From: Gammaproteobacteria bacterium UBA3067
GTDB lineage: Bacteria; Pseudomonadota; Gammaproteobacteria; Pseudomonadales; UBA3067
Assembly: GCA_002366835.1 (NCBI GenBank)
Contig: DFBZ01000147.1
Span: forward strand, 13,649 to 77,648
DNA: 64,000 nt
Direction: 5' to 3'
Shown here one piece after another: positions 6,565-55,794 of the stretch. Each line of letters starts with the position of its first letter. Position 1 is the first letter of the stretch. The translations under genes and the position numbers were made by a program. The notes under the pieces are model-generated. The model saw only the letters and a list, made by a program, of their open reading frames with translations. It was not told where the DNA came from and searched no databases.

Positions 6565-6868
6565 ATAGTTAACACTCTCGTTTCGGGGTTGAATAGAGCC
6601 GAATCAAAGCTACAGATTATTGTAGGCTATTATGAGCGTCAAAACTTGCGTGCTTACCCTTACAACATACCCCGGTTACAAAATATCTTTTTTGCAAGTT
6701 ACCGTAAGGCTACGACATTGTTACATAATCTATACCTGCGACTACATGACACACCCAGGTCGCCATCGACTAATCACTTATACTCTTACTAACGTCGCCA
6801 TTAAGTACATCATTCTCATGGCTTAAACTCTCCAACTTCTTCATATAACGTCGGAAATACAGATCACT

Positions 6869-9190
6869 ATGAATCACTACGCAACAGCTCTGCTTCAAAA
6901 AAAACGTTATGGAATAATATTTTCTCTCATTTTTGTGGTTCTAGTATCCGCTGGCCTGCCCTCTTTAAAGTTTTCAAGCGACTACCGTATATTTTTTAGC
7001 GAGCAAAACCCTCAGCTCAAAGCCTTTAACGAGTTCCAGGAGCGCTTCGGATCGCAAGACAATATTATGATTGCCATAGAATCGACGGATGGCAATATAT
7101 TTCAAAAAGACATTCTCGAACTCATCCATCGATACAGCAAGCTTGCCTGGAAGACACCCTATTCCAAGCGTGTTGATTCACTGAGCAATTACCAGCACAC
7201 CGAAACAGAAAATGATGACATGATCGTAAGTGCGCTGGTAAAGGACGACTCTACTCTAACGCCACAAGACATTGAAAATATTCGATCGGTTGCACTCAAT
7301 GAACGTGAACTGGTGGGTAGGCTGGTTTCCCACCGAGGGCATGTCACTGCCATCAACATCACCATGGACCTGCCCCCCGATGCCGGTAAGGAAGAAGCCG
7401 AAGCAATGGCCTTCGCCAGAGACCTTGCTAGCCGAATTGAACAAGAAAACCCAAAGCTTAAGACCTATCTTTCTGGTCAAACCCCTTTGAACGCTGCATT
7501 TATCGAGTCTGTTATTCATGATGGTTTAACATTAATGCCACTGATGCTTTTGGTTATCATCGCAACCACCTATGCTTTCCTACGTTCTTGGGCGGGAACA
7601 GCCGGAAGTATGATAGTGGTTTCACTTTCTGTGATTACCGCATTTGGCCTGGGTGGACACCTCGGCATATTGCAAAGTAGCACGACAGGTGCCGCACCGG
7701 TGGTCATTCTGACGCTTGCGATAGCTGATTCTATTCACCTGCTATCAACATTTTTTCATGAGCTACGCCACAACAAAAGCAGACAGGAGGCAATGCGGGA
7801 ATCATTACGCATCAATATTCAGCCTATTTTTCTGACTAGCTTCACCACTGCAATTGGTTTTTTTAGCCTTAACTTTAGTGAAATACCGCCCATCAGAGAC
7901 CTTGGAAATACCGTTGCTTTAGGTGTGATTGCTGCGTTTATATTCTCTACTGTTACGCTGCCTATCTTTATGATGTTTATTCCGCTAAAAACAGAAAACC
8001 TCTCGCAAGATCTACCACACAAGCTAATGGATACGTTACATCAATGGGTAGTAAAACATTATCGGGGAATTATTATTTTTTTCGCGGTGGTGGTGCCAAT
8101 ATTTACCGCTTATATCCCGCGAATAGAATTTAATGATCTATTTGCGGAATATTTTAGCGACTCCATTGAGTTCCGCAGAGATAACGATTTTATTCTCGAA
8201 AACTTAACCGGGGTAATGGCCCTGCATTATTCAGTTGATGCAGAGTCTGCTGATGAAATATACAACCCCGCTTATCTGGAACAACTACAGCACTTTGGTG
8301 ACTGGTTTGAACAGCAACCCGAAACGCTGCATGTTGATTCATTAGCAACACTGGTAAAGCGACTAAACAAAGTTCTACATAATGATGACCCAGCTCGTTA
8401 TGCAATTCCAGATGATGCTGACGAAATTGCACAGTATATATTTTTTTATGAGCTTTCTTTGCCCTACGGATTAGACCTTAAAAACAAAATGGACGCACAT
8501 CGCAGCAGTTCGCGCTTGACTGTTACCATTAAAAATACAAAATCCAAGGATCTCATCGATCTGGATGAGCGAGCCATGGCTTGGCTGGCTACAAATGCAC
8601 CTGATCTAAAAATAAAAAGCTCGGTGGGCCCCTCGATTATGTTTTCACATATCTCTGAAAAAAACTTGGGCAGCATGATTCAGGGGCTCGTAACGGCAAT
8701 TTTTTTAATCACCATCGCGTTAATGATCTCATTAAAAAGCATCCCTCTTGGTTTACTTAGTTTAATCCCGAATATTGCACCCACCCTTATGGCCTATGGG
8801 GTATGGAGTTTATGGGTGGGTGAGATTGGCATGACCGGTGCGATAATGAGTGTTGTCGGCTTGGGTATTATCGTAGATAACACGGTACACTTTTTAAGTA
8901 AGTATCTGCGCGCACGCAAAGAACAGAATAAGTCGGCGGAAGAAGCCATTCACTATGCATTTAATACGGTGGGCATTGCACTGGGTGTAACATCTACTGT
9001 ACTTATTGTGGGATTCCTCGTATTGGTGCTATCTGCATTCGAGCTCAATGTCGTACTGGGGAAGTTGGTTGCCTTGGACTTATTTTTTTCTCTTATTATC
9101 ACTTACCTACTATTGCCTTCCCTATTACTACTTGGTGCGAAAAGACATACGAAGGACAACAAAGCACCTTCCGATTCTTCCATTTCATAA
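6869..9190 (+). CDS. RND-superfamily (MMPL/HAE3-like) exporter, paralog 2
   Basis: 773 aa with the same architecture as paralog 1. Conserved blocks: FFSEQNPQLKAF, WKTPYSKRVDSLSNYQ, GIIVDNTVHFLSKYLRAR. Confidence 0.8.
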   Translation: MNHYATALLQKKRYGIIFSLIFVVLVSAGLPSLKFSSDYRIFFSEQNPQLKAFNEFQERFGSQDNIMIAIESTDGNIFQKDILELIHRYSKLAWKTPYSKRVDSLSNYQHTETENDDMIVSALVKDDSTLTPQDIENIRSVALNERELVGRLVSHRGHVTAINITMDLPPDAGKEEAEAMAFARDLASRIEQENPKLKTYLSGQTPLNAAFIESVIHDGLTLMPLMLLVIIATTYAFLRSWAGTAGSMIVVSLSVITAFGLGGHLGILQSSTTGAAPVVILTLAIADSIHLLSTFFHELRHNKSRQEAMRESLRINIQPIFLTSFTTAIGFFSLNFSEIPPIRDLGNTVALGVIAAFIFSTVTLPIFMMFIPLKTENLSQDLPHKLMDTLHQWVVKHYRGIIIFFAVVVPIFTAYIPRIEFNDLFAEYFSDSIEFRRDNDFILENLTGVMALHYSVDAESADEIYNPAYLEQLQHFGDWFEQQPETLHVDSLATLVKRLNKVLHNDDPARYAIPDDADEIAQYIFFYELSLPYGLDLKNKMDAHRSSSRLTVTIKNTKSKDLIDLDERAMAWLATNAPDLKIKSSVGPSIMFSHISEKNLGSMIQGLVTAIFLITIALMISLKSIPLGLLSLIPNIAPTLMAYGVWSLWVGEIGMTGAIMSVVGLGIIVDNTVHFLSKYLRARKEQNKSAEEAIHYAFNTVGIALGVTSTVLIVGFLVLVLSAFELNVVLGKLVALDLFFSLIITYLLLPSLLLLGAKRHTKDNKAPSDSSIS

Positions 9191-13087: not shown

Positions 13088-15751
13088 TTAACTATGCAAA
13101 GGGTCTGGTTTTTCCGGATTAATACCATATTTTTTTATAGCTTCTGTCACTATGGAATTTTCTAGCTTGCCTTGTTCTGCCAGTTCTTTTAGTGCTGCGA
13201 TAACAACAAAATACCGATCCACTTCAAAAAACTCGCGCAGTTTATTGCGGCTATCGCTACGCCCGAATCCATCTGTGCCTAATACGCAGTAATCTTTGTT
13301 TATGAATGGTCTGATTTGCTCTGCATAATTTTTTATATGATCTGTCGCGGCCACCACGGGCATATCTGTACCGTTAAGGTTTTCACTCACCAAACAGCTA
13401 CGCGGTGTTTCTTCTGGGTGCAGTAAATTCCAGCGTTCAGCAGAAGCCCCCTGTTTGCGTAATTCATTAAAACTGGTGACACTCCAGATCTCAGCACTGA
13501 TGCCGTAATCCGCCTTCAGCAAGTCAGCCGCAGCCATGACTTCAAGTAATATAGCGCCGCTACCCAGTAGCTGCACGGACATTTCTCCGGCAGACGCATC
13601 GAGCTCCTTGAGGCGATACATGCCGTCAATAATTCCCTGCTCTGCACCTTCCGGCATTTCAGGGTGGGCGTAGTTTTCATTCATCAAGGTGATGTAATAA
13701 AACACATTTTCCTGGTCAGCATACATGCGCTGCAAGCCGTGACGAATAATAACCGCGAGTTCAAAGGCAAAACTCGGATCGTAACTCACGCAGTTGGGAA
13801 TCGTGGAGGCGAGTATATGGCTGTGGCCATCCTGGTGCTGTAAGCCCTCGCCATTAAGGGTGGTGCGTCCAGAAGTTGCGCCCAGCAAGAAACCCCGCGC
13901 TTGCGAATCTCCTGCTGCCCAAGCCAAGTCACCGATGCGCTGAAACCCAAACATGGAGTAGAAAATATAAAACGGAATCATGGTGCAGCCATGGTTGGCA
14001 TAGGAAGTGGCGGCGGCTGTCCACGCCGCAAAGGCTCCGGCTTCGTTAATTCCCTCTTCCAGTATGCGGCCTTTCTGGTCTTCTTTATAAAACATCATCT
14101 GGCCGGCATCTTCCGGCTCGTATAATTGGCCTTCGGTAGAATATATTCCAAGCTGTCGAAACATGCCTTCCATACCAAAGGTACGCGCTTCATCTGGCAC
14201 GATGGGGACTATTTTTTCGCCGAGGTTTTTATCTTTTGTGAGTGTGGACAGTATTCTCACAAATGCCATGGTGGTGGATAAGGTGCGCTCACCCGAGCCT
14301 AGCAAGTGCGATTGAAAATCCGAAAGTGGTGGAATTTCCAGTTTGTCACATTGTGAGCGGCGTGCTGGCAAATATCCACCTAGTGCCTCGCGGCGTGCTT
14401 TTAGATAGCGAATTTCAGGGCTTTCATCACCGGGGTGGTAGTAGGGCAAACCTTCCAGCTCGGCATCAGAAAAAGGCATGCTGTAGCGATCACGAAAGTT
14501 CTTGAGAGTTTCCAAATCCATCTTTTTCATGGAGTGGGTTTTGTTGCTGGCTTCCCCTGGCCCCAGACCATAACCCTTTACGGTTTTTGCCAGAATAACC
14601 GTTGGTTTGCCATTTGCTTTTACGGCTTTGGCGTAGGCTGCATATACCTTGTAAGGATCATGGCCGCCTCGGTTCAGGTGGAATATCTGCTCATCAGTCA
14701 TATCACTGACACGGGCTTTTAACTCGGGGTATTTGCCAAAAAAGTGCTCTCTTGTATAGGCCCCGCCACGGTTTTTGTAGGTTTGGTATTCACCATCCAC
14801 CACTTCCATCATGCGTTTTTTGAGTAAGCCATCGTGATCTTCTTCGAGTAAACGGTCCCATAAACGCCCCCAAACCACTTTGATAACATTCCAGCCTGCG
14901 CCACGAAAAGCACCTTCTAGCTCCTGAATAATTTTACCGTTTCCCCTCACCGGCCCATCCAGCCGCTGCAAGTTACAGTTAACAACAAAAATCAGGTTGT
15001 CGAGTTTTTCTCGCCCCGCCAGAGATATTGCGCCGAGAGATTCTGGCTCATCGGTTTCACCGTCACCAAGAAAAGCCCAGACCTTTCGATCATCCGCTTT
15101 AATTAGCTCGCGGTTATCCAGATACTTCATAACGTGGGCTTGATAAATCGCCTGCAAAGGCCCCAAACCCATAGAAACGGTAGGAAATTGCCAAAAGTCA
15201 GGCATCAGCCAAGGATGGGGATAAGAGGAAAGCCCTCCTCCATCTACCTCACGGCGAAATCTTTCCAACTGGGCTTCACTCATTCGCCCTTCAAGAAAAG
15301 CACGGGAGTACATTCCCGGTGCTGAATGGCCTTGTATATACAGCAAGTCCCCTGATGAGTGCTCATTGGGGCCCTTGAAGAAGTAGTTAAAACCGACATC
15401 ATAGAGGGTGGCTGAAGAAGCAAAGGTTGAAATATGCCCACCCACATCGGGATCTTTTTCATTGGCGCGCATCACCATGACCAGCGCATTCCAGCGAATC
15501 AATGAACGAATTCGGCGCTCCATGTGCATGTCGCCGGGCATCCGCTCTTCGTCTTTACGCTGGATGGTATTGGTGTAAGGTGTGGTGACACGTTTAAAGG
15601 GAACCCCTTCCAACCTGGCAGTGTCCACCAGACGCTTCAAAATATAGGTGGCGCGCTCTGTCCCCTCGTGCTTAATCAGGGACTTTATTGCATCCAGCCA
15701 TTCTGCGGTTTCCTGCGGATCGAGGTCTTCAATAGAGGGGGTTTCGCTCAT
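13088..15751 (-). CDS. aceE: Pyruvate dehydrogenase E1 component (homodimeric type)
   Basis: 887 aa with N-terminal DPQETAEWLDA and the ThDP-binding region FLGDGETDEPES. Length and position directly upstream of aceF support the call. Confidence 0.96.
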   Translation of the reverse strand: MSETPSIEDLDPQETAEWLDAIKSLIKHEGTERATYILKRLVDTARLEGVPFKRVTTPYTNTIQRKDEERMPGDMHMERRIRSLIRWNALVMVMRANEKDPDVGGHISTFASSATLYDVGFNYFFKGPNEHSSGDLLYIQGHSAPGMYSRAFLEGRMSEAQLERFRREVDGGGLSSYPHPWLMPDFWQFPTVSMGLGPLQAIYQAHVMKYLDNRELIKADDRKVWAFLGDGETDEPESLGAISLAGREKLDNLIFVVNCNLQRLDGPVRGNGKIIQELEGAFRGAGWNVIKVVWGRLWDRLLEEDHDGLLKKRMMEVVDGEYQTYKNRGGAYTREHFFGKYPELKARVSDMTDEQIFHLNRGGHDPYKVYAAYAKAVKANGKPTVILAKTVKGYGLGPGEASNKTHSMKKMDLETLKNFRDRYSMPFSDAELEGLPYYHPGDESPEIRYLKARREALGGYLPARRSQCDKLEIPPLSDFQSHLLGSGERTLSTTMAFVRILSTLTKDKNLGEKIVPIVPDEARTFGMEGMFRQLGIYSTEGQLYEPEDAGQMMFYKEDQKGRILEEGINEAGAFAAWTAAATSYANHGCTMIPFYIFYSMFGFQRIGDLAWAAGDSQARGFLLGATSGRTTLNGEGLQHQDGHSHILASTIPNCVSYDPSFAFELAVIIRHGLQRMYADQENVFYYITLMNENYAHPEMPEGAEQGIIDGMYRLKELDASAGEMSVQLLGSGAILLEVMAAADLLKADYGISAEIWSVTSFNELRKQGASAERWNLLHPEETPRSCLVSENLNGTDMPVVAATDHIKNYAEQIRPFINKDYCVLGTDGFGRSDSRNKLREFFEVDRYFVVIAALKELAEQGKLENSIVTEAIKKYGINPEKPDPLHS

Positions 15752-15952
15752 GGAGAAATATCCTTTTTTACTTCTTAGGCGCTTTCCTAAATAATATTTT
15801 ATTCCTTAACCAAATAGCTATTCAGCAATTTCCGCAGCTGTTTAAATAGTAGGCGCAAATTGAATTATGACCATTCTTATTTGAAAGTATAGGTGCATAA
15901 GTTTGATAAATCTTTCAAAAACAAGGATCTTGAAACAAAGGGGTAATTCAGG

Positions 15953-16579
15953 CTAATTCTTCAGGTTTTCTTTTAGCGCATTGAAATATTTAGACCAATC
16001 AAATTCAGGGCCCGGATCAGTTTTTCTCTGGTAGGCAATGTGCTGGTGCCCACAAATTTTATCCGCTGTAATGCGCGGATAATGACGCATTAATGAAATA
16101 GTGATGGAGGTGAGCTGTTCATACTGTTCAGGCGTAAACGCCTGGTCGTCGCTTCCTTCCAACTCTATGCCAATGGAAAAGTCATTGCAACGCTCTTTCC
16201 CCCTGAAGTGCGATTGCCCAGCGTGCCAGGCGCGTTGATAAAAGGGGACAAACTGAATGATGTCGCCATTGCGACGAATAAATAAATGGGCGGAAACCTC
16301 TAGCTGATAGATTTCCTGAAAATATGGATGGTCTTCAGGGTTAAGGCAATTGGTAAAAAGTTGCTGCACGTAATCCCCGCCGAATTTACCCGGCGGTAAA
16401 CTAATATTGTGAATCACCAGCAGGCTTATATCTGCCTCGTTAGCACGCGCATCGCAATTCGGTGAGCAAATAAATGTCGCTGAGCCCAAGATGCCCTTTT
16501 CTATGAAAGCAGTTTTTATTTTATTAATTCCACTGAAGTTATTATTAACTCTTTGTTTCCTTTGCATTACGCAAGTCAC
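15953..16579 (-). CDS. ampD: 1,6-anhydro-N-acetylmuramyl-L-alanine amidase AmpD
   Basis: Matches E. coli AmpD blocks LLVIHNISLPPGKFGG, RAWHAG, CNDFSIGIELEG and RKTDPGP. The true start may be the second Met (16567). Confidence 0.9.
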   Translation of the reverse strand: MTCVMQRKQRVNNNFSGINKIKTAFIEKGILGSATFICSPNCDARANEADISLLVIHNISLPPGKFGGDYVQQLFTNCLNPEDHPYFQEIYQLEVSAHLFIRRNGDIIQFVPFYQRAWHAGQSHFRGKERCNDFSIGIELEGSDDQAFTPEQYEQLTSITISLMRHYPRITADKICGHQHIAYQRKTDPGPEFDWSKYFNALKENLKN

Positions 16580-45641: not shown

Positions 45642-47327
45642 CTAAGAAACGGACTCCACTCCCCCCATATTTCCGTAATAAGCTAAACGAAAATCCCGCA
45701 ATATTTTTTCCCGTGATTCGGCATCCTCGCCACAGTTTTCCAGCACCATGCGCGCCAATTCAAGGCTGGCTTCGAGGTTTTCAGACACAACGCCAAATGC
45801 GCCCAGCTGCTGTAATTCACTACACTGTTGCAGATTATGTCCTCGTGCGTATAACTGTGCATCTGGGTAAAGGACTCGTAGTGTGCGCACCAATTCTTCC
45901 GTAGCGCTGACGTCATTGAGCGTAATGATGATCATTTTTGCCGTTGCGGCGCCCACGGCTCTGAGCAGCTCTGGCTGGCGCACATCACCATAAAATACAG
46001 GGTGGCCCGCACTGCGATCTCGCTCAACAACAAGCGCATCAGAATCCAGGGCAACGTAAGGCCTTCCTGCTTGCTGAAGCACCTGGCCAATACGGCGGCC
46101 AACACGACCAAAACCGGCAATCACAATGGGAGAGTCAGGCACAACCTGAATATCACCCACCGCTGCTTTGTCTTGCCTTTTAAAAACGCGATAGGCGACT
46201 TCTGCCAAAATAGGCGTGACAAGCATACTCAATAACACCACTAAAAGTAGCTGCTGAAAAAGCGCTTCAGCCAAAATTCCCGATTGAAAGGCGAGTGCGA
46301 ATAACACCAACGCAAACTCCCCCCCCTGGGCCAATATCAAGGTAACTGCCAAACCATTTCTTTTTTGCACGCCAAAAAAACGCGCCAAGGGGTATAGAAC
46401 AATAATCTTAATAACAACCAACAGAACCACCAGAAATACGGCACGAACAGGGTGAGCAATGAATAAATTCAGGTTCAGCGACATGCCCATCGACATAAAG
46501 AAAAGGCCGAGCAATAGACCGCGAAAGGGCTGAATTTCTGCAGTCACCTGGTGGCGATAGGAGGAGTCCGAAATCAGCAAGCCGGCCAGAAAAGCACCCA
46601 TCGCCATAGATAATCCAATATGCTCGGTGATGGTGGCAGTGCCCAATACAATAAGTAGTGCGGAAGCCGTAAACACCTCGGGGTTGCCAGAACGGGCAAT
46701 ACGATGCAAAAGGGGATGGAGAAAATAACGGCCCACCACAATCACCAGCGACAAAATAAATAACGACTCAAGTAGCGCCAAACCGACATTTTGACCAACG
46801 CCATCCTCCGTGGAGGCCAAAAGAGGAATAAGAGCCAGCAGGGGCACTACTGCTAAATCCTGAAAAAGAAGCACGGCAATGGATGTACGCCCATAACTGT
46901 TCTTAAGAGAGTTTTGCTCCCGCAATAATTGCAAAACAAACGCAGTGGAAGAAAGAGCCAAAGCCGGCCCAACCAATACCGCTGCTTTTAGCGGTAAATC
47001 AAACAGAAAGTACACCCCGCAGCTTATTAAGCTGCCTGTCAGTATCACCTGTAACAGGCCCAAACCAAAAACTAAACGCTTAATACTCCACAAAACAGAG
47101 GGTTTTAGCTCAATACCGATAACAAATAAAAGCAGCACCACGCCAATTTCAGAAAAATGACTGATCCCAGTAACATTGCCAATCAAACCCAAACCGTATG
47201 GACCAACCACAACTCCAGCCAGCAAAAACCCAGGCACAGCGCCCAAGCGCATTGACTGGGAAAGAGGCACCACCACCACCGCAGCCACCAGCAATAAAAT
47301 AAGGTCAATCAACATATATGAGTTCAT
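45642..47327 (-). CDS. CPA2-family monovalent cation:proton antiporter with C-terminal RCK/TrkA-N domain (KefB/KefC-like)
   Basis: 561 aa with about 12 TM helices, then the Rossmann motif IAGFGRVGRRIGQVL. Confidence 0.88.
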   Translation of the reverse strand: MNSYMLIDLILLLVAAVVVVPLSQSMRLGAVPGFLLAGVVVGPYGLGLIGNVTGISHFSEIGVVLLLFVIGIELKPSVLWSIKRLVFGLGLLQVILTGSLISCGVYFLFDLPLKAAVLVGPALALSSTAFVLQLLREQNSLKNSYGRTSIAVLLFQDLAVVPLLALIPLLASTEDGVGQNVGLALLESLFILSLVIVVGRYFLHPLLHRIARSGNPEVFTASALLIVLGTATITEHIGLSMAMGAFLAGLLISDSSYRHQVTAEIQPFRGLLLGLFFMSMGMSLNLNLFIAHPVRAVFLVVLLVVIKIIVLYPLARFFGVQKRNGLAVTLILAQGGEFALVLFALAFQSGILAEALFQQLLLVVLLSMLVTPILAEVAYRVFKRQDKAAVGDIQVVPDSPIVIAGFGRVGRRIGQVLQQAGRPYVALDSDALVVERDRSAGHPVFYGDVRQPELLRAVGAATAKMIIITLNDVSATEELVRTLRVLYPDAQLYARGHNLQQCSELQQLGAFGVVSENLEASLELARMVLENCGEDAESREKILRDFRLAYYGNMGGVESVS

Positions 47328-48052
47328 AAACAGCTAAGCTCACCGTCCTCTTGGTAAATACAGATGTGGCCAGAAACATCACAACCGCTTGGTTATACTA
47401 ACTTTCTCATGCTTACAAGGCGCAGGTTCCTAGTTTATTCAAAGCCCCCCGCCTGTAAGCCAGAATAATTTTAAAACTCACGAAAACCATCTTAGCAGCC
47501 AGGCTGGAAAAGTCATTGAAGAAGCCTGCGTCAATCAATAAAAATAACACAAGCCAGCTTATGGCGTAGGCCAAACACCAGCAAGCCCACTCCCTGCTCT
47601 TTGATATAAGCAGCAACCCAAGCCCGGCTAGCGTGGCGAGTAAGTATTGTCTCCGTATTTCTAGCCTGTTAGTCTAACGACCCAATAGAGCGCGCCCGCC
47701 CCAATAAAGCGCACCCGCCCGAAAGGCTATTACTAGCTGGACCAATAACACAAAATACACAGCCGAGCGCGCTCAAATAGTCGAGGAAAAAGTCCGACAA
47801 TTCCCCAAACATGACACCAGGTCACATATTTCTGTCTTGCTACAAGGCTAGTCTGGTTATTTAATAGACTGAGATAATTCGAACACCTGTGAATATTTTA
47901 AATACAAGCCACTTCCTTCAACGTTAAATCAGAAACTTAAGCAACGGGTTTCCGAGAAATATGACGGCTCAGAGCTTATCTACCTATCTAGGAACTAGAG
48001 AGGTTTGATCTTTCGTCGTTGAAACAGATTTTTTTAATGGAGCCCAAGCAGT

Positions 48053-50050
48053 ATGTCGGTCCAGCATACCTATTCTGAAAAAATGAATAACGATAACAGC
48101 AATACCCCAGATACCCCCCTCCCAATTATCAGCATTATCATTCCTGCGCTAAACGAAGCTGGAACCATAGACCGCCTGCTTAATGACCTGCTAGAGGGGG
48201 CCGACAACAAGGTAGAAATCATCGTATGCGATAGCCACAGTGACGATGATACGGCCTTGATTGTGAAGCGTTATACCCAGAGTCATCCCAATGTCCTAAA
48301 GTTAGTGCAGGCCCCTCAGCGCGGCGTTTCACTGGCGAGAAACCTTGGTGCCCAAGAAGCAAAAGGGGAATACCTGGTTTTTTTGGATGCAGACGCACGC
48401 ATCACGCTTACGTCTCTTTTAGACGGTGTAAAAGAAATGCAGGAGCGCGACCTGGTGGCCGCCGCCCTAAAGCTCAGATCCGCATCGGATTACTTACCTG
48501 ACCACCTCTTAATTTTCCTATTTAATTTATCTATCCAGTGCATGCAGTATTTTCAGCCCACAGCACCAGGCGCGGCCGGCTATATAATAAAACACAAGGC
48601 CCATAATACTTACGGTGGATTTAACCAAGGGATGCATTTTGGTGAAGATGTAGAATATCTACGCCGGGTGAGCCAAGGTGGAAAGTTTCGCATACTCAAA
48701 CAGGGGCGCATTCAATGGGACATGCGCCGCTTCCAGCAAGAAGGCAGATTAAACGTATTATGGAAGATGACATGGGGAACAATCGCCCAACTGAAAGATG
48801 TGACTGTCACAGATATCCCTTTTAACTATGATGTCGGAAGTTTTCATGAGAACGTCAATCTAGCAAAAAATAAAAAAAAGGGCGAACGGCGCATTCTTGC
48901 CCAGCCTTACCAAGTTATTGGTACGGTTCCACGTATTATTCCAGCCGAAATGGCAAGCCCCTTCCATTTTCTAAAACGCCCGTTAGAGCAAGTGGATTTC
49001 CTGCACGTTATGAAGGAAAACGGCAAAAACATCTCCCCCTACTGCTTGGACGATAAACGACGCTGCCTTCTATTCATCGAAACACCTGACAAGCTTGATT
49101 TACTCAATGCAGACCCTTTCTTTTATGAAGCGCAGCGAGATCACGCCACCAAGATCTATGCCGTTCCCTATGCCAGCTTGAGCATCCTGGTTGAAGAGCT
49201 GGTAGATGAACAAGAAGCCCTATCGGTATTTTTACACAGCACGGGGCGTTGCGGGTCCACGCTGTTGAGTCAGTTACTTGGTAGTGTTAAAGACACACTA
49301 TCCGTTTCGGAGCCGGATTTTTATAGCCAGGCCATGATGCTCTCAAAAGAATCATCAGGAAAAAGAGATGCCGAATTAAGCAAGTTGATGCAAAACTGTA
49401 CGCGCTTGCTTTCCTATCACCTGCATCGCAGCAAACCCAATGCCAGCCTCCACCTGATTAAACTCCGCAGCTGGGCCATTTTTGGAGCCCACCTACTTCA
49501 ATGGGATGAAAAACCCGCCAAGCACTTATTCCTTTATCGTCAGGCCGAACCCACCGTAAATTCATTTTTAAATGCTTACTTTAGCCTTGGCCAATATAAA
49601 TTCTGGCGGCGTTGGAAATTGGACACCCTGCTGCTTCGCGTGCTGGGAAGTATTCCTATCTTCCGAGAAGCCCTTGGCGCAACTGTTCCTCTCTTTAATC
49701 ACCCAATGTTTCGCGCTGATGGACGCCAAGGCGCCGATAAGTATTTTACCCTTCAGTGGTTATCCCATATGGATGCAGCGCACGAACTACAGCAGGCGTT
49801 CCCGGGATTTTTTTCGATAGTGCTTTGTTACGAAGAGCTAAAAGCGCAGCCTGAAAAATACCTGCACATGATTATGGAATCTTTATCTGGAGGTGAGACA
49901 GACTTTCAAGTGGCGACTGATTTAAGTAACATCCTGTCTCGCGATAGCCAAGCCGGCTCACGTTTTCAGAGTAAAGGCGAGCAACTCCTCACAGAGACAG
50001 ATAAAGCGCATGTTGCATCGCTTCTAGCGCGATACCCCATTGAGCTTTAA
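48053..50050 (+). CDS. Family-2 glycosyltransferase fused to a C-terminal sulfotransferase-like domain
   Basis: The N-terminus is GT2 (ISIIIPALNEAGTI.., VFLDADARI). The C-terminal half has a PAPS 5'-phosphosulfate-binding-like loop (STGRCGSTLLSQLLG) and a later LYRQAEPTVNSF segment. Confidence 0.65.
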   Translation: MSVQHTYSEKMNNDNSNTPDTPLPIISIIIPALNEAGTIDRLLNDLLEGADNKVEIIVCDSHSDDDTALIVKRYTQSHPNVLKLVQAPQRGVSLARNLGAQEAKGEYLVFLDADARITLTSLLDGVKEMQERDLVAAALKLRSASDYLPDHLLIFLFNLSIQCMQYFQPTAPGAAGYIIKHKAHNTYGGFNQGMHFGEDVEYLRRVSQGGKFRILKQGRIQWDMRRFQQEGRLNVLWKMTWGTIAQLKDVTVTDIPFNYDVGSFHENVNLAKNKKKGERRILAQPYQVIGTVPRIIPAEMASPFHFLKRPLEQVDFLHVMKENGKNISPYCLDDKRRCLLFIETPDKLDLLNADPFFYEAQRDHATKIYAVPYASLSILVEELVDEQEALSVFLHSTGRCGSTLLSQLLGSVKDTLSVSEPDFYSQAMMLSKESSGKRDAELSKLMQNCTRLLSYHLHRSKPNASLHLIKLRSWAIFGAHLLQWDEKPAKHLFLYRQAEPTVNSFLNAYFSLGQYKFWRRWKLDTLLLRVLGSIPIFREALGATVPLFNHPMFRADGRQGADKYFTLQWLSHMDAAHELQQAFPGFFSIVLCYEELKAQPEKYLHMIMESLSGGETDFQVATDLSNILSRDSQAGSRFQSKGEQLLTETDKAHVASLLARYPIEL

Positions 50051-50194
50051 GGGCATCTCTAAAAATTGCCTTTTTATCTGATAGCGGCGTCAGCTCCGTA
50101 CTCAACTCCTCATGTAGCCCTTCTACACTGCGGGTTTCCGTGCGGTGCTTCCTTGCTCTCGAATAAAAATTCTAATTTTTAGAGACGCCCTTAA
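50047..50194. mobile_element. MITE-like element, family 2
   Basis: TIRs TTAAGGGCATCTCTAAAAATT (left) / AATTTTTAGAGACGCCCTTAA (right) with one mismatch. About 148 bp with no ORF. The left end contains the TAA stop of the GT2-fusion gene. Confidence 0.6.
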
Positions 50195-50205
50195 TATCGA
50201 ACACA

Positions 50206-52563
50206 TTAGGGCGCCACTGAAACACCATCAGCGTGTTCCTTGGCGACCTTAACAACAAGGCTGTTCAATACGCTCGTGCCTGATAGCGGGTCGAAATCAT
50301 GACTCGATGTTAAGTCATTAAAACTTGTTCCTGAACACCTTTCAACCACCCCCGCTTCCTCGACAAAACCCTGACCGCTCCAACCGTGAGGTAGGGAAAT
50401 AACGCCCTTCATCATCGACGAGCACAACGCAACATGGGCAATAATGTGGTGTTGGTCCGACGCCACGCGCACCTTATTGCCTTCACTTACGCTTAAAGAA
50501 TGGGCATCTTCCGGATTCATCAATAAGGTATTGGAGGGTTTCCCCTTCGTTAATCTATCGACACGATTTAACCATGAGTTCATTGAGCGCGGTGTCCGCC
50601 TGCCAATAAGATAAAATTCACCCTCTGCTAAAGGAGCTATTCCCTCTGACACCTTGCTCACTTTCTCAAGCTCCGAAAGGTATATATCGGGTGCAAGGTG
50701 TACAGCTTTATCAGCGGTCAATAACCTGTCAGGCAGGCTTGAGATCATCGCACCCAGGTCCAAACCATTTGGATTACGTTTTAGATTCTTCAATGTTAAA
50801 GGAAGGCGTTTATTTTTTAAATCTTTCTCGCCAGTCCCGATCATTCGTTTTGAAAACGGCGAAACCTTAAAGAGCATCAGCAATTTGTACTGGTACCGAC
50901 CAAGAAAATTAGCGCTCGGAGAAGACAAAGGATTGTTTGGATTTTCGTGTGTGTTGAATATATTACTCAGGCGGTTTTTCCTGAATGTAATGCCATAAGG
51001 GCCAAGCTTTAACATAAAATCCAGCACACCATCTGGCCCGAATATTTTGAATATAAAGCAAAGCAAGCGAAGAGAGAAAGAGCGCAGAGAATATTCCCGA
51101 TTCAAAACATCACTCAACTGCAGAAGTATTTGCCAATCATGTTTCGCCCCATGCGCAGGAGAGAATAAGGGCTTTGAATAACGGGCATTATTACGCACGG
51201 CGGTGAGATTGCAGGTCATATTATATTGCGACCTTTCAAGGGCACTCGTGGGGGGCAAAACAATATTGGCAAAGCGGCTCGTTTCATTGATAAAGGAATC
51301 CACCGCCACCATAAAATCCAGCTGTCCAAGAGCCGCCTCAAGTTTTTTCCCGTCGGGAGTAGATAATACAGGGTTACCCGAAACATTAATAAAAGCCTTG
51401 ATGGCGTCAGGCTGATTCGACAGCATTGCATCTGCCATTTCTACAACGGGTATCTCCGCATCAAAAGAAGGTAACTGTCTTTGTTGGCTTTGAAACGCGT
51501 CAAACTCCCCGTTTTCATTGATGATCGCCGATAATAAGGCCAGGTCTACCGCAGGCGTGGGGAACATTAAACCACCCTCTTGGTCGAGATTACCTGTGAT
51601 AATATTCAGTACGTATAACAACCAAGCGTTAATCGCGCCATGTTTTTGTGTACAAATACCAAAACGCCCATAAGCCACCGCACGTTTAGCCGTAGCAAAC
51701 TCAAACGCAAGGGTTTCAATCATACCTCGCGCTACACCCGTTTGTTTGGCCACTTTCTCGATATCGAAGGTTTGGATTATTTTTTTAAAGCTCTCCACAC
51801 CGGTGGTGTAAGCCTGCCATTCACCCTGAGCCAGCCATTCATTTTCAAAAATAAAATGAATCAACGCTACTAATAGAAAAACATCCTGACCGGGATAAAT
51901 AAAAACATGCCTGTTTGCCAACTCAGCTGTTTCTGTCTTCCGAGGATCTATAGTGATGATTTTCCCACCACGACTCTGTAGGGCTTTGAGGCGTTTTTTA
52001 ATATAGGGCGCACTCATAAGACTTCCGTTAGATACAACGGGGTTAGCGCCAAAACAAAGAAGGTAGTCCGTACGATCAATATCGGGCACAGGCAGTAGTG
52101 CCATATGACCAAATAATTGATATGCGGCCAGCATATGAGGCAAGTGATCAGAAGAGGCAACACTAAAGCAGTTTTTACTGTTTAATGATTTTCGAAGCAG
52201 AATACTGGTGAGCAAACTACCATGATGATGGATACGGGGGTTGCCTAAGTATAAGGCGACACTGTTATCACCGTATTTCTTTTTAGCGGTCTCCAGTTCT
52301 TTTGCTATATCCTCGAATGCAGTTTCCCAAGATATCGTCTCCCACCCTTGAGGGGTTCGTCGAACCGGCTGCCGCAGGCGATCTTTGTGCTCGTGAATAT
52401 CCTTTAAGGCCAATGCTTTTGCACACATATGGCCCTTGCTAAACGGGTCATCGGGGTTACCTTTTATGCTGGTAACCTTGCCATGATGGGTTTGGATTTT
52501 CAGGCCACACATGGCCTCGCAAAGATTGCAAATTTGAATATGGGTATGAGTGTTGTTTGTCAC
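50206..52563 (-). CDS. Molybdopterin-dependent oxidoreductase (MopB superfamily, cytoplasmic single-subunit type)
   Basis: 785 aa. The N-terminal 4Fe-4S motif is C-x2-C-x3-C...C (CNLCEAMCGL...HMCAK). There is no signal peptide and no in-frame UGA. Confidence 0.82.
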   Translation of the reverse strand: MTNNTHTHIQICNLCEAMCGLKIQTHHGKVTSIKGNPDDPFSKGHMCAKALALKDIHEHKDRLRQPVRRTPQGWETISWETAFEDIAKELETAKKKYGDNSVALYLGNPRIHHHGSLLTSILLRKSLNSKNCFSVASSDHLPHMLAAYQLFGHMALLPVPDIDRTDYLLCFGANPVVSNGSLMSAPYIKKRLKALQSRGGKIITIDPRKTETAELANRHVFIYPGQDVFLLVALIHFIFENEWLAQGEWQAYTTGVESFKKIIQTFDIEKVAKQTGVARGMIETLAFEFATAKRAVAYGRFGICTQKHGAINAWLLYVLNIITGNLDQEGGLMFPTPAVDLALLSAIINENGEFDAFQSQQRQLPSFDAEIPVVEMADAMLSNQPDAIKAFINVSGNPVLSTPDGKKLEAALGQLDFMVAVDSFINETSRFANIVLPPTSALERSQYNMTCNLTAVRNNARYSKPLFSPAHGAKHDWQILLQLSDVLNREYSLRSFSLRLLCFIFKIFGPDGVLDFMLKLGPYGITFRKNRLSNIFNTHENPNNPLSSPSANFLGRYQYKLLMLFKVSPFSKRMIGTGEKDLKNKRLPLTLKNLKRNPNGLDLGAMISSLPDRLLTADKAVHLAPDIYLSELEKVSKVSEGIAPLAEGEFYLIGRRTPRSMNSWLNRVDRLTKGKPSNTLLMNPEDAHSLSVSEGNKVRVASDQHHIIAHVALCSSMMKGVISLPHGWSGQGFVEEAGVVERCSGTSFNDLTSSHDFDPLSGTSVLNSLVVKVAKEHADGVSVAP

Positions 52564-52688: not shown

Positions 52689-53483
52689 TTATCGCGCTCG
52701 GCGTAAACTTGCCTGAGAAAAGTCATCCGCCGTTTTATTTTCCTGAAACAAATACTCACTCATAATCAAATCTGTACTTCTACCATCCGTCTGATTAACC
52801 ATATTCAAATGATGTGCCCGCCAGTATTTGTCGAGATAGAGTTTATAATTGGAAATCGTTAGGCGTTTGGCATGGCTGTCTTTGCGGTCATAAAAGTCAG
52901 CCTGGAAAATACGATACTCTTTTTTATCAACCCACATTATTTGACGGGTATAGCCAGAATCAGTGCTTTTTGGAATTCTTTCAACTACAAACATTTCTGC
53001 ACCCGCCAAGTTTTCATCGCGCAGGTATTTGTAGCGATAATCATCCACCTCCTGCGGTGCCAGATCTTCATAAGCAAACTCACTACCCAAGAAGGACCCT
53101 GCTTTTGATGAACCGCTAATGCGCTTTACACGGCCCAATTTTGGCAAATATAACCATTGATCATCCTCTCGCTCGCCATGAGCGTGGGTCAGCAAGGCCG
53201 TACCACGTACCTTTTTTGGTTCTCGAAAAATAATCAGTGTTTTATCACCCTCAGTATTATCCTCCAAAACACTCTGATCCATAATACGGCGGCTTTCCTG
53301 ACCCGATGCATTGCGTAGAATCATTTCTTGACGCGCACTAAAGTCTTTGAAGCCCATATCTCGGCTATCCATTTCAACAAAAATGTTACGGCCTATCTCT
53401 TCTGGCGTTTCGGCTATCACTTGCGATGCGAAAAATAAACTCGGTAGAAAAAATAAGCTTAGACTTAATTTACGTAACATCAT
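52689..53483 (-). CDS. Outer-membrane lipoprotein-sorting (LolA-like) protein
   Basis: 264 aa with a signal peptide (..FFASQVIA). The sequence pattern matches the LolA_like partners commonly encoded after MMPL/RND exporters. The start overlaps the upstream RND gene by 14 nt. Confidence 0.7.
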   Translation of the reverse strand: MMLRKLSLSLFFLPSLFFASQVIAETPEEIGRNIFVEMDSRDMGFKDFSARQEMILRNASGQESRRIMDQSVLEDNTEGDKTLIIFREPKKVRGTALLTHAHGEREDDQWLYLPKLGRVKRISGSSKAGSFLGSEFAYEDLAPQEVDDYRYKYLRDENLAGAEMFVVERIPKSTDSGYTRQIMWVDKKEYRIFQADFYDRKDSHAKRLTISNYKLYLDKYWRAHHLNMVNQTDGRSTDLIMSEYLFQENKTADDFSQASLRRAR

Positions 53484-55794
53484 TTTCTTTATCCTTCTGA
53501 ATTATGAGTAACAAGCTTGGCAGAATAAAATAGGTAATGCCAAGAGAAATAGCCAAGGCGATGGCAGTCATCTCTCCTAAAAATTGATTCGGTTTTAAGG
53601 CTGAAAATGCCAGCACAATAAAACCCAAGGTCAAAATGCTTGAGGTCACCCCAAGTGCGGTACCAACACGTTGGAATGAGTAGTAGATAGCCTCCCTCGC
53701 ACTAAGATTCTTTTCATTTTTAGCACGGAGATATTTGCTGAGAAAATGGATGGTGTTGTCGACCACAATACCAAAAGCCACCACCACGGCCGGCGCGGCG
53801 GCAATACCTAAATACCCATTAAACATCCCCCAAAGACCAAAACCAATAACACCTGGCGCGAGATTCGGTATCAAGCTTAGCAAACCCAGTTTTATATTGC
53901 GTAATGCTAGCGCGATAATAATGGAAATAAGTCCTATAGCCAGCAAACCGCCAATGATCATAGATTGCCCATTACGTTTCCCTGCATGGCCCATCATAAC
54001 GGATGGCCCGACACCCTCTACCACACGCAGTGCAGGCAAGTTTTTCTTGGCAAACACCAAAGCGCGGGTATCCAAATCAGCAATGGCCTGAGATTCCACA
54101 TTGCCCATTGTCACCGTAACACGTGTCATGCTTTGGTTGATGTTCACCAAGTTAGTCACATCAAGGCCATAGGGAAGCGACATTTCGTACAACAGGTGAT
54201 ACTGGGCCGCTAATTCAGAATCCCGTGGCGGCTGGTAGTACAGCTCATCCCCACCGTGCATGGTGCGATTCAAACGCCGCATAATGTCACTATAGGATTC
54301 CACATGAACGACCCCAGGCTGGGCTTTATACCACTGAGTCAGTTGATCTAACTGGCGCAAGTAGTCCGGCTCAAAAATACCTTCTTCACTACCCGAGTCC
54401 ACCGCATGGTGCACCAGCATCACACCGGTAAGGTGGTCGCGAATAAAGTCCGTATCCTGGCGAAATTGCATCTTCGGGCCAAACATCTCCTGAAACAGAT
54501 CATTAAACTGATTCAAGGTTAAGCCATGGGCGGTAAACACCAGAACAAGAACAAAGACCACACTGAACTCGTTTCGACGCCGAATAGCCAAGTCGGCAAC
54601 TTTATCCATAAAACCCTGACTCTTCACCGCTGGGCTATTGGCTTTTAAAGGGAAAAAACTCAACAAGGCTGGCAGGCTGACCACCGAAAAAAAGAAAGCA
54701 AACACAATGCCCATAGAAACGATGTTACCCAGAGCATGAAAAGGAGGTGACTCACTCGTGTTCAATGATAAAAAGCCAATACCCGTAGTGAGGCTGGTAA
54801 GAAAGATTGGCTTCATATTCACTTCGAGAGATTCAATAATCGCCTCATGGCGACTTTTTCCTGCCCGAATTTCCTGAAACATTGTCACTAATATATGCAC
54901 GCTATCAGCCACCGCCAAGGTCAAAATAACCACCGGCGCGGTACCCGTCATCAAGCTTTGCTCTATCTGCAAATACCCAGACATCCCTAGGGCAGACAAC
55001 ACGGATAATATAATAACCACAGTAACGCCGATGACCGCCCAAAATGAGCGCAGAAAAAAATAGGTGACCAATAAGATTAACGCAAACATAATTGGGAACA
55101 GGGTTTTCGCGTCCACCGCCCCCCCTTCCATAAAGGACTGCCCCATCATGATTTCACCCGTAAGGTAGGTTTTCAGATGCGGGTACTTCGCTTGGGTTTG
55201 CTTCATCAAATCGCGAACGTAAGCCACTGCACTGCCCTGCTCATGGGAACCGGCCTGAGGCAAGTGCATGGTGATATTCACTGCTGCAACAGAGGCATCA
55301 CTCGCAACAATACGGTCGACAATTAAAGGCTCACTAAGGGCGATATGACGCGCTTGTTTTATCTCGCTATCAGTGAGACTGGCAGCATTCTCTACCAGGG
55401 GTTTTACCAGCAGGTCATCCCCCGTGGCATAGGTATCCTGGAAATTGGTTAGTGAATCTACCCGCTTCGAATAGGGAGTTTTCCAGGCAAGTGCCGTTAA
55501 CCACTCAATGGCCTCCAGGGTTTCACGGCTAAACACACTTTCGTTTTCTGGCGCCAGCACAATCATTATATTATCGCGCTGACCAAATATATTCTGCATC
55601 GCATCAAAAGCGATTAGCTGAGGATAGTCTTCACTGAACATGACTCGATAATCAGCCGTCACCTTGATTTTCGGTAAACCCATCGCGCAGGCAACAGCAA
55701 TCAGAACAGAGGCGAGTAACACCAAATAGCGAAAACGAAGAATAAACTCTGCGAAATAACGAACGGAGAAAAACGATGTTTCATTTGCTCTCAT
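53470..55794 (-). CDS. RND-superfamily (MMPL/HAE3-like) exporter, paralog 3
   Basis: 774 aa. Conserved blocks: MFSEDYPQLIAF, WKTPYSKRVDSLTNFQ, GIVVDNTIHFLSKYLRAK. Confidence 0.8.
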   Translation of the reverse strand: MRANETSFFSVRYFAEFILRFRYLVLLASVLIAVACAMGLPKIKVTADYRVMFSEDYPQLIAFDAMQNIFGQRDNIMIVLAPENESVFSRETLEAIEWLTALAWKTPYSKRVDSLTNFQDTYATGDDLLVKPLVENAASLTDSEIKQARHIALSEPLIVDRIVASDASVAAVNITMHLPQAGSHEQGSAVAYVRDLMKQTQAKYPHLKTYLTGEIMMGQSFMEGGAVDAKTLFPIMFALILLVTYFFLRSFWAVIGVTVVIILSVLSALGMSGYLQIEQSLMTGTAPVVILTLAVADSVHILVTMFQEIRAGKSRHEAIIESLEVNMKPIFLTSLTTGIGFLSLNTSESPPFHALGNIVSMGIVFAFFFSVVSLPALLSFFPLKANSPAVKSQGFMDKVADLAIRRRNEFSVVFVLVLVFTAHGLTLNQFNDLFQEMFGPKMQFRQDTDFIRDHLTGVMLVHHAVDSGSEEGIFEPDYLRQLDQLTQWYKAQPGVVHVESYSDIMRRLNRTMHGGDELYYQPPRDSELAAQYHLLYEMSLPYGLDVTNLVNINQSMTRVTVTMGNVESQAIADLDTRALVFAKKNLPALRVVEGVGPSVMMGHAGKRNGQSMIIGGLLAIGLISIIIALALRNIKLGLLSLIPNLAPGVIGFGLWGMFNGYLGIAAAPAVVVAFGIVVDNTIHFLSKYLRAKNEKNLSAREAIYYSFQRVGTALGVTSSILTLGFIVLAFSALKPNQFLGEMTAIALAISLGITYFILPSLLLIIQKDKENDVT

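Follow-up and report, generated by a model that had tools for sequence, protein, structure and literature searches.

A single gene of Gammaproteobacteria bacterium UBA3067 joins a family 2 glycosyltransferase (GT2) to a sulfotransferase (ST) of the kind that uses 3'-phosphoadenosine-5'-phosphosulfate (PAPS). The gene occupies positions 48053-50050 of the window, a 64,000-nucleotide stretch of contig DFBZ01000147.1, and an earlier note, written by a model from the sequence alone, had singled it out as a GT2 fused to a sulfotransferase-like domain. We find that it represents a rare but conserved fusion in marine and soil Proteobacteria, whose ST half comes from a large uncharacterised subfamily, and that both halves are under purifying selection. 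We lean towards the view that the encoded protein works in the cytoplasm as a bifunctional enzyme and makes a sulfated glycoside, with an acceptor that is probably lipid-linked.

Two catalytic domains in one polypeptide

The open reading frame (ORF) and the parts of the encoded protein are listed here by window position and strand, with amino acid (aa) numbers of the translation. The ratio of nonsynonymous to synonymous substitution rates is abbreviated dN/dS, and the predicted local distance difference test score pLDDT.

48053-50050, plus strand: GT2-sulfotransferase fusion ORF, complete, 665 aa, ATG start, with the TAA stop codon at 50048-50050
48113-48826, plus strand: GT2 (GT-A fold) glycosyltransferase domain, aa 21-258 (PF00535, Foldseek, dN/dS 0.12)
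48386-48394, plus strand: DxD motif of the GT2 domain, D112-A113-D114, invariant in alignment A1 (16 sequences)
48827-48907, plus strand: interdomain linker, aa 259-285, basic (KNKKKGERR), poorly conserved, low pLDDT
48908-49216, plus strand: conserved alpha/beta subdomain at the N-terminal end of the sulfotransferase module, aa 286-388 (pLDDT above 84, dN/dS 0.09)
49217-50047, plus strand: predicted PAPS-type sulfotransferase fold core, aa 389-665 (Foldseek and family profile)
49238-49264, plus strand: 5'-phosphosulfate-binding (PSB) loop STGRCGSTL, aa 396-404, including R399, invariant or nearly so across the family
49307-49318, plus strand: S-E-P-D, aa 419-422, nearly invariant, with E420 as candidate catalytic base
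49457-49471, plus strand: I-K-L-R-S, aa 469-473, with K470 as candidate transition-state lysine (alignment of 56 sequences)
49532-49570, plus strand: 3'-phosphate-binding (3'-PB) segment LYRQAEPTVNSFL, aa 494-506, with R496 and S504, both invariant in 56 sequences

The N-terminal half had been described in the earlier note as a family 2 glycosyltransferase, on the strength of two peptides that we recover from the translation (IISIIIPALNEAGTI at aa 25-39 and FLDADARI at aa 110-117). Pfam agrees, matching PF00535 to aa 27-143 with 83.8 bits, well past the gathering threshold of 23.3 (E=1.7e-23). Besides the DxD motif, the acidic residues D60 and E198/D199 (G197-E-D199) are invariant among 16 full-length orthologues. 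A structural model of the full-length protein reached moderate confidence (pLDDT 70.7), and its top 50 Foldseek matches are GT-A glycosyltransferases, nearly all of them GT2. The best structural match is the archaeal mannosyltransferase PcManGT (E=2e-12), which we take to be a membrane GT2 of the DPMS/GtrB kind. By sequence, the best matches in the PDB are chondroitin polymerase and again PcManGT, and further matches include sll0501/GtrB-like enzymes, ArnC, DPMS and glucosyl-3-phosphoglycerate synthase.

Among curated families, the GT2 half comes closest to TIGR04283 of NCBIfam, matching the whole 221-position profile over aa 26-255 (E=1.3e-31) with 109.9 bits, which falls below the curated equivalog cut-off of 182. 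The mycofactocin glycosyltransferase MftF matches as well (E=6e-16). We considered and rejected an arsenosugar or mycofactocin pathway as suggested by these two families, since the score lies far under the cut-off and no radical-SAM, ArsM or mft genes occur at any fused locus. The nearest non-fused GT2 relative (30% identity) lies within a Wzx/Wzy/GLF polysaccharide cluster, a location that says little about the acceptor here.

The full-length model returned GT2 matches only, and the C-terminal module was therefore modelled separately. For aa 283-665, AlphaFold2 with an alignment of 29 sequences gave a model of high confidence (pLDDT 92.1, predicted template modelling score 0.91). Of its 50 best Foldseek matches in the PDB, 49 are PAPS-dependent sulfotransferases (best E=5.6e-5), among them TPST, SULT1B1, Teg12, OLS-ST, CurM-ST, LGS1, SOT16/18 and retinol dehydratase; the scores do not separate CurM and OLS from TPST or SULT enzymes. 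Likewise, a profile of 56 diverse family members yields 39 matches in the PDB at E<=1, every one a sulfotransferase, led by CurM-ST (1.2e-7, in three collinear aligned pieces) and OLS-ST (9e-5). PF13469 (Sulfotransfer_3) is detected in 52 of the 56 members at E<=0.01 (best 8.5e-14) and PF00685 in 29. Thus, although the signal of a single sequence is marginal, profiles and structure together make the assignment unambiguous, and the C-terminal module is predicted to be a PAPS-type sulfotransferase of alpha/beta fold, in which a parallel sheet carries a strand-loop-helix PSB element. The earlier note had staked this reading on sulfotransferase or P-loop similarity in profile or structure searches, which is what Foldseek (49/50), the family profile (39/39) and Pfam (52/56) all returned. 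Its identification of the domain stands, and its estimate of the size, about 280 C-terminal residues, does not: the module spans about 380 aa (aa 286-665). The N-terminal subdomain of about 100 aa, marked by the motifs PYCLD and PFFYEAQR.HA, accompanies the sulfotransferase core always, in stand-alone relatives and throughout the family.

The note had likened the peptides STGRCGSTLLSQLLG (aa 396-410) and LYRQAEPTVNSF (aa 494-505) to a PSB loop and a 3'-PB region. Both are present, and they align with these motifs in CurM-ST and TPST. Specifically, STGRCGSTL aligns with the PRSGSTL/PRSGTTL loops of these enzymes, and LYRQAEPTVNSFL with LVRHPYSVIESF of CurM-ST and IRDGRAVVHS of TPST; Arg and Ser of the 3'-PB segment stand 8 residues apart (R496...S504). 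According to PMC10951654, the corresponding residues Arg78, Glu99 and Lys158 are catalytic in TPST2, and every sulfotransferase has conserved PSB and PB motifs. In our alignments E420 pairs with the second Glu of the 'GEE' of tick TPST, 21 residues past the PSB Arg, and K470 with the Lys of the TPST 'NKD'. Over the 56 sequences R472 is invariant and K470 nearly so, and the near-invariant columns of the family comprise R399, G401, S402, T403, S419-E420-P421-D422, K470, R472, L494-Y495-R496, S504, W569 and Y593. By alignment, E420 and K470 are candidates for the catalytic base and the sulfuryl-contacting lysine.

Measured against an orthologue of 89% protein identity, dN/dS is 0.12 in the GT2 domain, 0.09 in the ST subdomain and 0.10 in the ST core, and rises to 0.39 in the linker. 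Both halves are thus probably functional, as values near 0.1 in the domains and 0.39 in the linker indicate. Full-length fusion orthologues (51-89% identity) form about 20 protein clusters from Gammaproteobacteria metagenome-assembled genomes (MAGs), in assemblies from NCBI, JGI, ENA and Logan. The two domains also occur as neighbours. The locus L019 is a split version, with GT2 (E=1e-68 to the GT2 domain of the window protein), ST and a VTT membrane protein as separate genes in the same order, and its GT2 likewise scores under the TIGR04283 cut-off (102.9 bits). In L030 and L043 a GT2 gene lies just upstream of the ST gene. Together, the fused clusters and the split pairs of these three loci indicate that the two halves are functionally coupled.

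A hidden Markov model of the ST module, run exhaustively against 1.84 billion representatives, returned 488 representatives at E<=1e-30 and 1442 at E<=1e-10. Almost all of the best 150 are stand-alone proteins of 340-440 aa, and a single one (P0011) carries a GT2 domain, which bears out the view that such a polypeptide is unusual. The relatives are named 'hypothetical protein' or 'sulfotransferase' in their sources. Literature searches for a GT2-sulfotransferase fusion or for a link between sulfotransferase and DedA found nothing relevant. One stand-alone homologue of the whole module, P0046 (435 aa, E=1.4e-127 to the family profile), comes from the transcriptome of the choanoflagellate Diaphanoeca grandis in EukProt; either the family reaches eukaryotes or this sequence is a bacterial contaminant.

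The fusion protein has no transmembrane (TM) segment (maximum KD19 1.29) and no signal peptide, and therefore fits the use of cytoplasmic nucleoside diphosphate sugars and PAPS. Its first ~20 residues differ among orthologues and are disordered (pLDDT 25-32), so that the true N-terminus may be M1 or M11. The annotated start in the 89% relative L007 (position 10001) aligns with an out-of-frame ATG at window positions 48039-48041.

Gene neighbourhoods of the relatives and of the window gene

We collected loci of relatives by exact-protein look-ups and by a profile scan of GTDB genomes, and clustered the neighbouring ORFs without prior assumptions. At about 29 loci a gene for a VTT/DedA membrane protein (PF09335) lies directly downstream of the module, often overlapping it. 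It accompanies fused and stand-alone forms of the module alike, and its sequences fall into subtypes that follow the sulfotransferase with which they are paired. Translocation of lipids and undecaprenyl phosphate across the membrane is a known role of the VTT/DedA family. The only NCBIfam match of the partner protein is the undecaprenyl phosphate transporter UptA, a weak one (E=0.006).

Two further partners recur among the relatives. An orphan family of about 290 aa, which we term dn298/dn275, lies beside the module in 17 loci (for example L005 4195-5088, minus strand; L001 13478-14302, plus strand; L089 9168-10031, minus strand; and 14 further loci), with 33% identity between its branches. 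Its invariant motifs GGFDP, G-M-S-x-S, D-T and H-R follow the Ser-Asp-His order and are joined by HCGH; it has no signal peptide, and sequence and profile searches of Pfam, NCBIfam and the PDB gave no match. Judged by motif order alone, it is probably a novel alpha/beta-hydrolase. Fused operons of the Macondimonas type encode a TIM-barrel protein of glycoside hydrolase (GH) clan GH-A; its N-terminus is signal-like, it has the motifs NE and ETG, and it weakly resembles GH1 6-phospho-beta-glycosidases. In L019 a convergent ORF for a thioesterase-like alpha/beta-hydrolase follows GT2, ST and VTT, and genes for a patatin and an acyl-AMP ligase border the stand-alone paralogue of L089.

Genes for Wzx/Wzy, ABC/Kps, synthase-channel, OPX/PCP or initiating phosphoglycosyl-transferase systems were absent beside the module in the ~30 neighbourhoods inspected. 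One further candidate pathway component, 'up215', a TM and SPOR-like protein encoded after birA-coaX in a single lineage, was discarded as a syntenic bystander.

In MAGs of Ca. Macondimonas and 'Gammapro13' (L013/L017, L014/L018, L015/L023) a fused GT2-ST-VTT-GH operon exists alongside a separate ST-VTT-dn298 cluster of the stand-alone kind. The two differ in VTT subtype, and this implies two systems that work in parallel and are not redundant. L089 is a 245-kb metagenome scaffold (SCHR21-1) that encodes the stand-alone paralogue at 34% identity together with dn298-like, patatin and acyl-AMP ligase genes. Its GC content is 0.462 and its tetranucleotide correlation with the window is r=0.91, both as close as those of a true orthologous locus; from this composition, a stand-alone system may be present in the organism of the window too, or in a close relative. 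In several loci with distant members of the ST-module family, mostly from Betaproteobacteria MAGs (L025, L045-L047, L049, L051, L056, L090), an adjacent ORF falls into one cluster with a large tetratricopeptide repeat protein; the representative scanned (L046, 869 aa) shows a weak GT9-like match at its C-terminus.

The window gene itself stands alone. The elements that flank it are the following.

47328-48052, no strand: intergenic spacer of 725 bp that separates the divergent Kef-type antiporter and fusion genes
50047-50194, no strand: miniature inverted-repeat transposable element (MITE)-like element, 148 bp including both flanking TTAA, with 21-bp terminal inverted repeats (TIRs), an empty site in L007 and dispersed copies

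As the earlier note had described, the gene lies outside any polysaccharide cluster. It is flanked by a divergent Kef-type antiporter gene (Na_H_Exchanger and TrkA_N; 45642-47327, minus strand) and a convergent molybdopterin oxidoreductase gene (50206-52563, minus strand), beyond which a LolA-like gene and a resistance-nodulation-division (RND) gene of HAE3/MMPL type follow on the minus strand. No polysaccharide-assembly genes were seen near it in the window. A tblastn search with three partner VTT proteins found no VTT homologue in the 64-kb window, and the idea that the window or its spacer conceals a decayed VTT/DedA gene was dismissed. The pair of ST module and VTT is likewise absent from the syntenic sub-lineage of L007-L009 and L212 (85-89% protein identity) and is kept in relatives at 53-61% identity. 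Isolation of the fusion gene is thus specific to the sub-lineage of the window, and more distant fused relatives sit in a small VTT/DedA operon.

The RND gene of the window (HAE3/HpnN-like; 53470-55794, minus strand) is intact, next to a LolA-like/DUF1329 gene (52689-53483, minus strand) and 3.4 kb from the fusion gene. The GT2 and ST pair of L030 adjoins an HAE3/HpnN-like RND gene with 34% full-length identity to it. In the 89% relatives L007-L009 the gene is reduced to short fragments (15424-16444), and in L212 it is called as two ~400-aa genes (6042-8406), which suggests that its decay is ongoing in the population. An RND transporter of this type was rejected as a dedicated exporter, being linked to the module in the window lineage and L030 only and fragmented in relatives whose fusion gene is intact; it counts as no more than a weak hint.

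The ~720 bp of non-coding DNA that had been noted upstream of the gene correspond to the 725-bp spacer. It has no Rfam match at E<=1 and no excess of promoter-like or terminator patterns, and a riboswitch or small RNA was rejected on these grounds. Where alignable, it is ~82% identical to the spacer of L007, with several indels, and looks like an ordinary divergent regulatory region. It contains a 67-aa ORF (47413-47616, minus strand; TTG start, hydrophobic, no Pfam match); in the comparison with L007, indels of 32 and 19 nt fall at or past its start, and the ORF is probably not a gene. Models of anti-phage defence in PADLOC gave no match at E<=0.01, and membership in a known defence system was rejected.

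The MITE reported directly after the gene is real. Its 21-bp TIRs, with one mismatch, lie at 50047-50067 and 50174-50194; the element is bounded by TTAA at both ends, and the target TTAA takes in the final base of the last Leu codon together with the TAA stop; the stop codon is preserved. L007 has a precise empty site, with convergent stop codons 10 bp apart. The TIR sequence TTAAGGGCRTCTCTAAAAATT occurs in at least 119 metagenome contigs and is widespread in environmental metagenomes. Five copies of the element at >=95% identity have unrelated flanks, each bounded by TTAA; longer variants share ~72% identity, the TIR family comes in sizes of 148 bp and ~190 bp, and the window holds one copy.

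A proposed sulfated glycoside and the competing explanations

We favour, with restrained confidence, a cytoplasmic bifunctional enzyme that makes a sulfated glycoside, because two intact catalytic domains are conserved together and are sometimes encoded by adjacent genes. A soluble or peripheral cytoplasmic protein, it would transfer a sugar from a nucleotide-sugar to an acceptor with its N-terminal GT2 and sulfate a hydroxyl of the GT2 product with its C-terminal PAPS-dependent sulfotransferase. Glycosylation followed by sulfation would be the most likely order, with a sulfated glycoside as output. The acceptor is probably lipid-linked, a membrane lipid or polyprenyl phosphate, as the gene neighbourhoods of relatives suggest. 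Pointing this way are the DedA/VTT partner, the lipid-related neighbours and the similarity of the GT2 to DPMS/GtrB-like enzymes. The fused operon, which would span three compartments with a cytoplasmic enzyme, a membrane protein and an exported glycosidase, argues in the same direction. In relatives, the product would be handed to the VTT/DedA membrane protein and then processed by the exported clan GH-A glycosidase or by the orphan alpha/beta-hydrolase-like protein. In the sub-lineage of the window these VTT, GH and hydrolase partners are not adjacent and would be encoded elsewhere.

A broader and more tentative idea, which we put forward as possible though rather doubtful, is that the ST module with its subdomain, the VTT/DedA protein and often the orphan Ser-Asp-His hydrolase-like protein form the core of an undescribed pathway for a sulfated lipid-linked sugar. 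Synthesis would take place at the cytoplasmic face of the inner membrane and would be followed by movement across it. The product might be an anionic sulfoglycolipid without phosphorus, made by marine and soil Proteobacteria, or a polyprenyl-phosphate-linked sulfosugar donor for periplasmic modification. The window protein would then be a rare version with the glycosyltransferase step fused on.

Several observations weigh against a bifunctional enzyme with a lipid-linked acceptor. GT2 enzymes of the GtrB, ArnC and DPMS type that act on polyprenyl phosphate typically carry C-terminal TM helices, and the fusion protein has none. The curated GT2 families nearest to it, TIGR04283 and MftF, are associated with small-molecule substrates. 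The window has no VTT, GH or dn298 gene, and the case for lipid and export comes from relatives at 53-61% identity. The RND gene provides a weak link, since it is broken up in the 89% relatives, where the fusion is intact, and missing from the other loci. Finally, the window protein by itself scores just under the Pfam sulfotransferase cut-off (24.2-26.2 bits against 27 for PF13469), with only the P-loop end of the profile covered.

The same two reactions could instead act on a soluble small-molecule acceptor (for example a compatible solute, cofactor or secondary metabolite), in which case the VTT/DedA protein of relatives would be a transporter or unrelated. We regard this as unlikely, though it is the rival to which we give most weight. 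It would account for the curated GT2 matches (the arsenosugar-associated TIGR04283 at 110 bits, MftF at E=6e-16, glucosyl-3-phosphoglycerate synthase), for a soluble protein with no TM helix and for the lack of a membrane partner near the window gene. Yet 110 bits miss the TIGR04283 cut-off of 182 widely, the fused loci have no radical-SAM/ArsM or mycofactocin genes, and a membrane-associated product is in better accord with the VTT gene, which is tightly conserved and often overlaps, with the exported glycosidase and with the lipid-related neighbours. We give a smaller chance to polysaccharide tailoring, in which the protein would add a sulfated sugar side-branch to an exopolysaccharide (EPS), capsule or lipopolysaccharide. 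Periplasmic glycoside hydrolases are typical accessories of EPS operons, and a GH of periplasmic type does occur in the fused-type operon; the nearest non-fused GT2 relative, at 30% identity, belongs to a Wzx/Wzy/GLF cluster. A precedent exists in bacterial systems for sulfated EPS, such as synechan, in which GT and ST are encoded separately (PMC8205485). This explanation is improbable in view of the ~30 neighbourhoods free of export and assembly genes next to the module and of the position of the window gene between antiporter and oxidoreductase genes.

CurM/OLS enzymes, LGS1 and retinol dehydratase use sulfate as a leaving group, and the last two are among the fold matches of the C-terminal model, while CurM-ST (1.2e-7) and OLS-ST (9e-5) are the best profile matches in the PDB. 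Sulfation might accordingly be activating, with an elimination or substitution completed by the alpha/beta-hydrolase partner of relatives, genes for which recur (dn298/dn275 in 17 loci, the thioesterase-like ORF of L019); this adjacency to the module is reminiscent of the CurM ST-TE (thioesterase) pair of the literature. We hold this to be quite improbable: polyketide synthase (PKS), acyl carrier protein (ACP) and other acyl-carrier context is missing from every locus, Foldseek scores leave CurM/OLS and TPST/SULT unseparated, the fused glycosyltransferase would have no role in such chemistry, and a dn298-family hydrolase is absent from the window. The reading that takes one half for a non-catalytic relic or a binding module, or the fusion for an artefact of assembly or frameshift, is largely refuted and in our judgement very improbable. 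The sub-threshold Pfam score of the ST half as a single sequence and the pLDDT of only 70.7 for the full-length model would agree with it, but the same architecture recurs in ~20 clusters from independent assemblies and sources, the catalytic motifs of both halves are invariant, dN/dS is ~0.1 in both, and the C-terminal model reaches a pLDDT of 92.

Meaning of the fusion and its place among known systems

Sulfated glycoconjugates are well studied in animals and algae; to our knowledge, few bacterial pathways have been described, mainly those of Nod factors, mycobacterial sulfolipid-1 and cyanobacterial synechan. The fusion is a lead to an undescribed bacterial sulfoglycoconjugate pathway. Coupling of glycosyl transfer and sulfation in one polypeptide would make a compact biocatalyst for sulfated glycosides, and the pairing with DedA/VTT in relatives could give a poorly understood membrane-protein family a concrete substrate. 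A function for one member of the ST module would annotate many genes (488 clusters at E<=1e-30, including the choanoflagellate member). If the product is a sulfated membrane lipid, it would be a new non-phosphorus anionic lipid in bacterial membrane biology.

A close parallel is the rhizobial pair NodC and NodH, in which a GT2 and a Sulfotransfer_3-type enzyme with an R-x-G PSB loop act in the cytoplasm to make a sulfated, lipid-bearing glycoside that is exported. NodC is a GT2 chitooligosaccharide synthase and NodH a PF13469-type PAPS sulfotransferase (PMC11625862 for the classification of NodH), and their products are the sulfated lipo-chitooligosaccharide Nod factors. However, NodC and NodH are separate proteins encoded in a nod operon with an acyltransferase and an ATP-binding cassette exporter, whereas here there is one polypeptide and no nod genes. 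Compared with NodH, the ST of the window has the extra N-terminal subdomain of ~100 aa and belongs to a different, uncharacterised subfamily.

The ST domains of CurM and OLS (PDB 4gbm, 4gox) are the best profile matches in the PDB, and share with the window ST the fold and the collinear PSB loop, 3'-PB segment and 'RYEDL' segment, at 15-16% identity in Foldseek alignments. They differ in lying within PKS modules (ACP-ST-TE), where they sulfate a beta-hydroxyacyl-ACP to create a leaving group; PKS and ACP domains are found neither in the fusion protein nor in the neighbourhoods examined. By structure, the top matches are TPST1, TPST2 and tick TPST (PDB 8w5z, 5wri, 3ap3; E=5.6e-5, TM-score 0.45-0.55 on the target), whose PSB Arg, Glu, Lys and 3'-PB Arg and Ser align with R399, E420, K470, R496 and S504. 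In contrast to the window protein, which is cytoplasmic, bacterial and fused to a glycosyltransferase, the TPSTs are type II membrane proteins of the animal Golgi lumen that act on peptide tyrosines, and identity is 13-17%.

On the glycosyltransferase side, TIGR04283 ('arsenosugar biosynthesis glycosyltransferase', mftF-like) is the best NCBIfam match over the full profile, but the window GT2, far under its cut-off and with no radical-SAM ArsS or ArsM neighbour in any fused locus, is not a member. Like the fused operons, pathways of the GtrA/GtrB and ArnC type, together with the DedA/UptA flippases, couple a GT2 to a small membrane protein, which takes a lipid-linked sugar or its carrier over the inner membrane. 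They depart from the window system in that GtrB/ArnC-type GT2 enzymes have C-terminal TM helices and lack a sulfotransferase. The window GT2 resembles them in a generic way, and the VTT gene, which accompanies the module elsewhere, is absent from the window.

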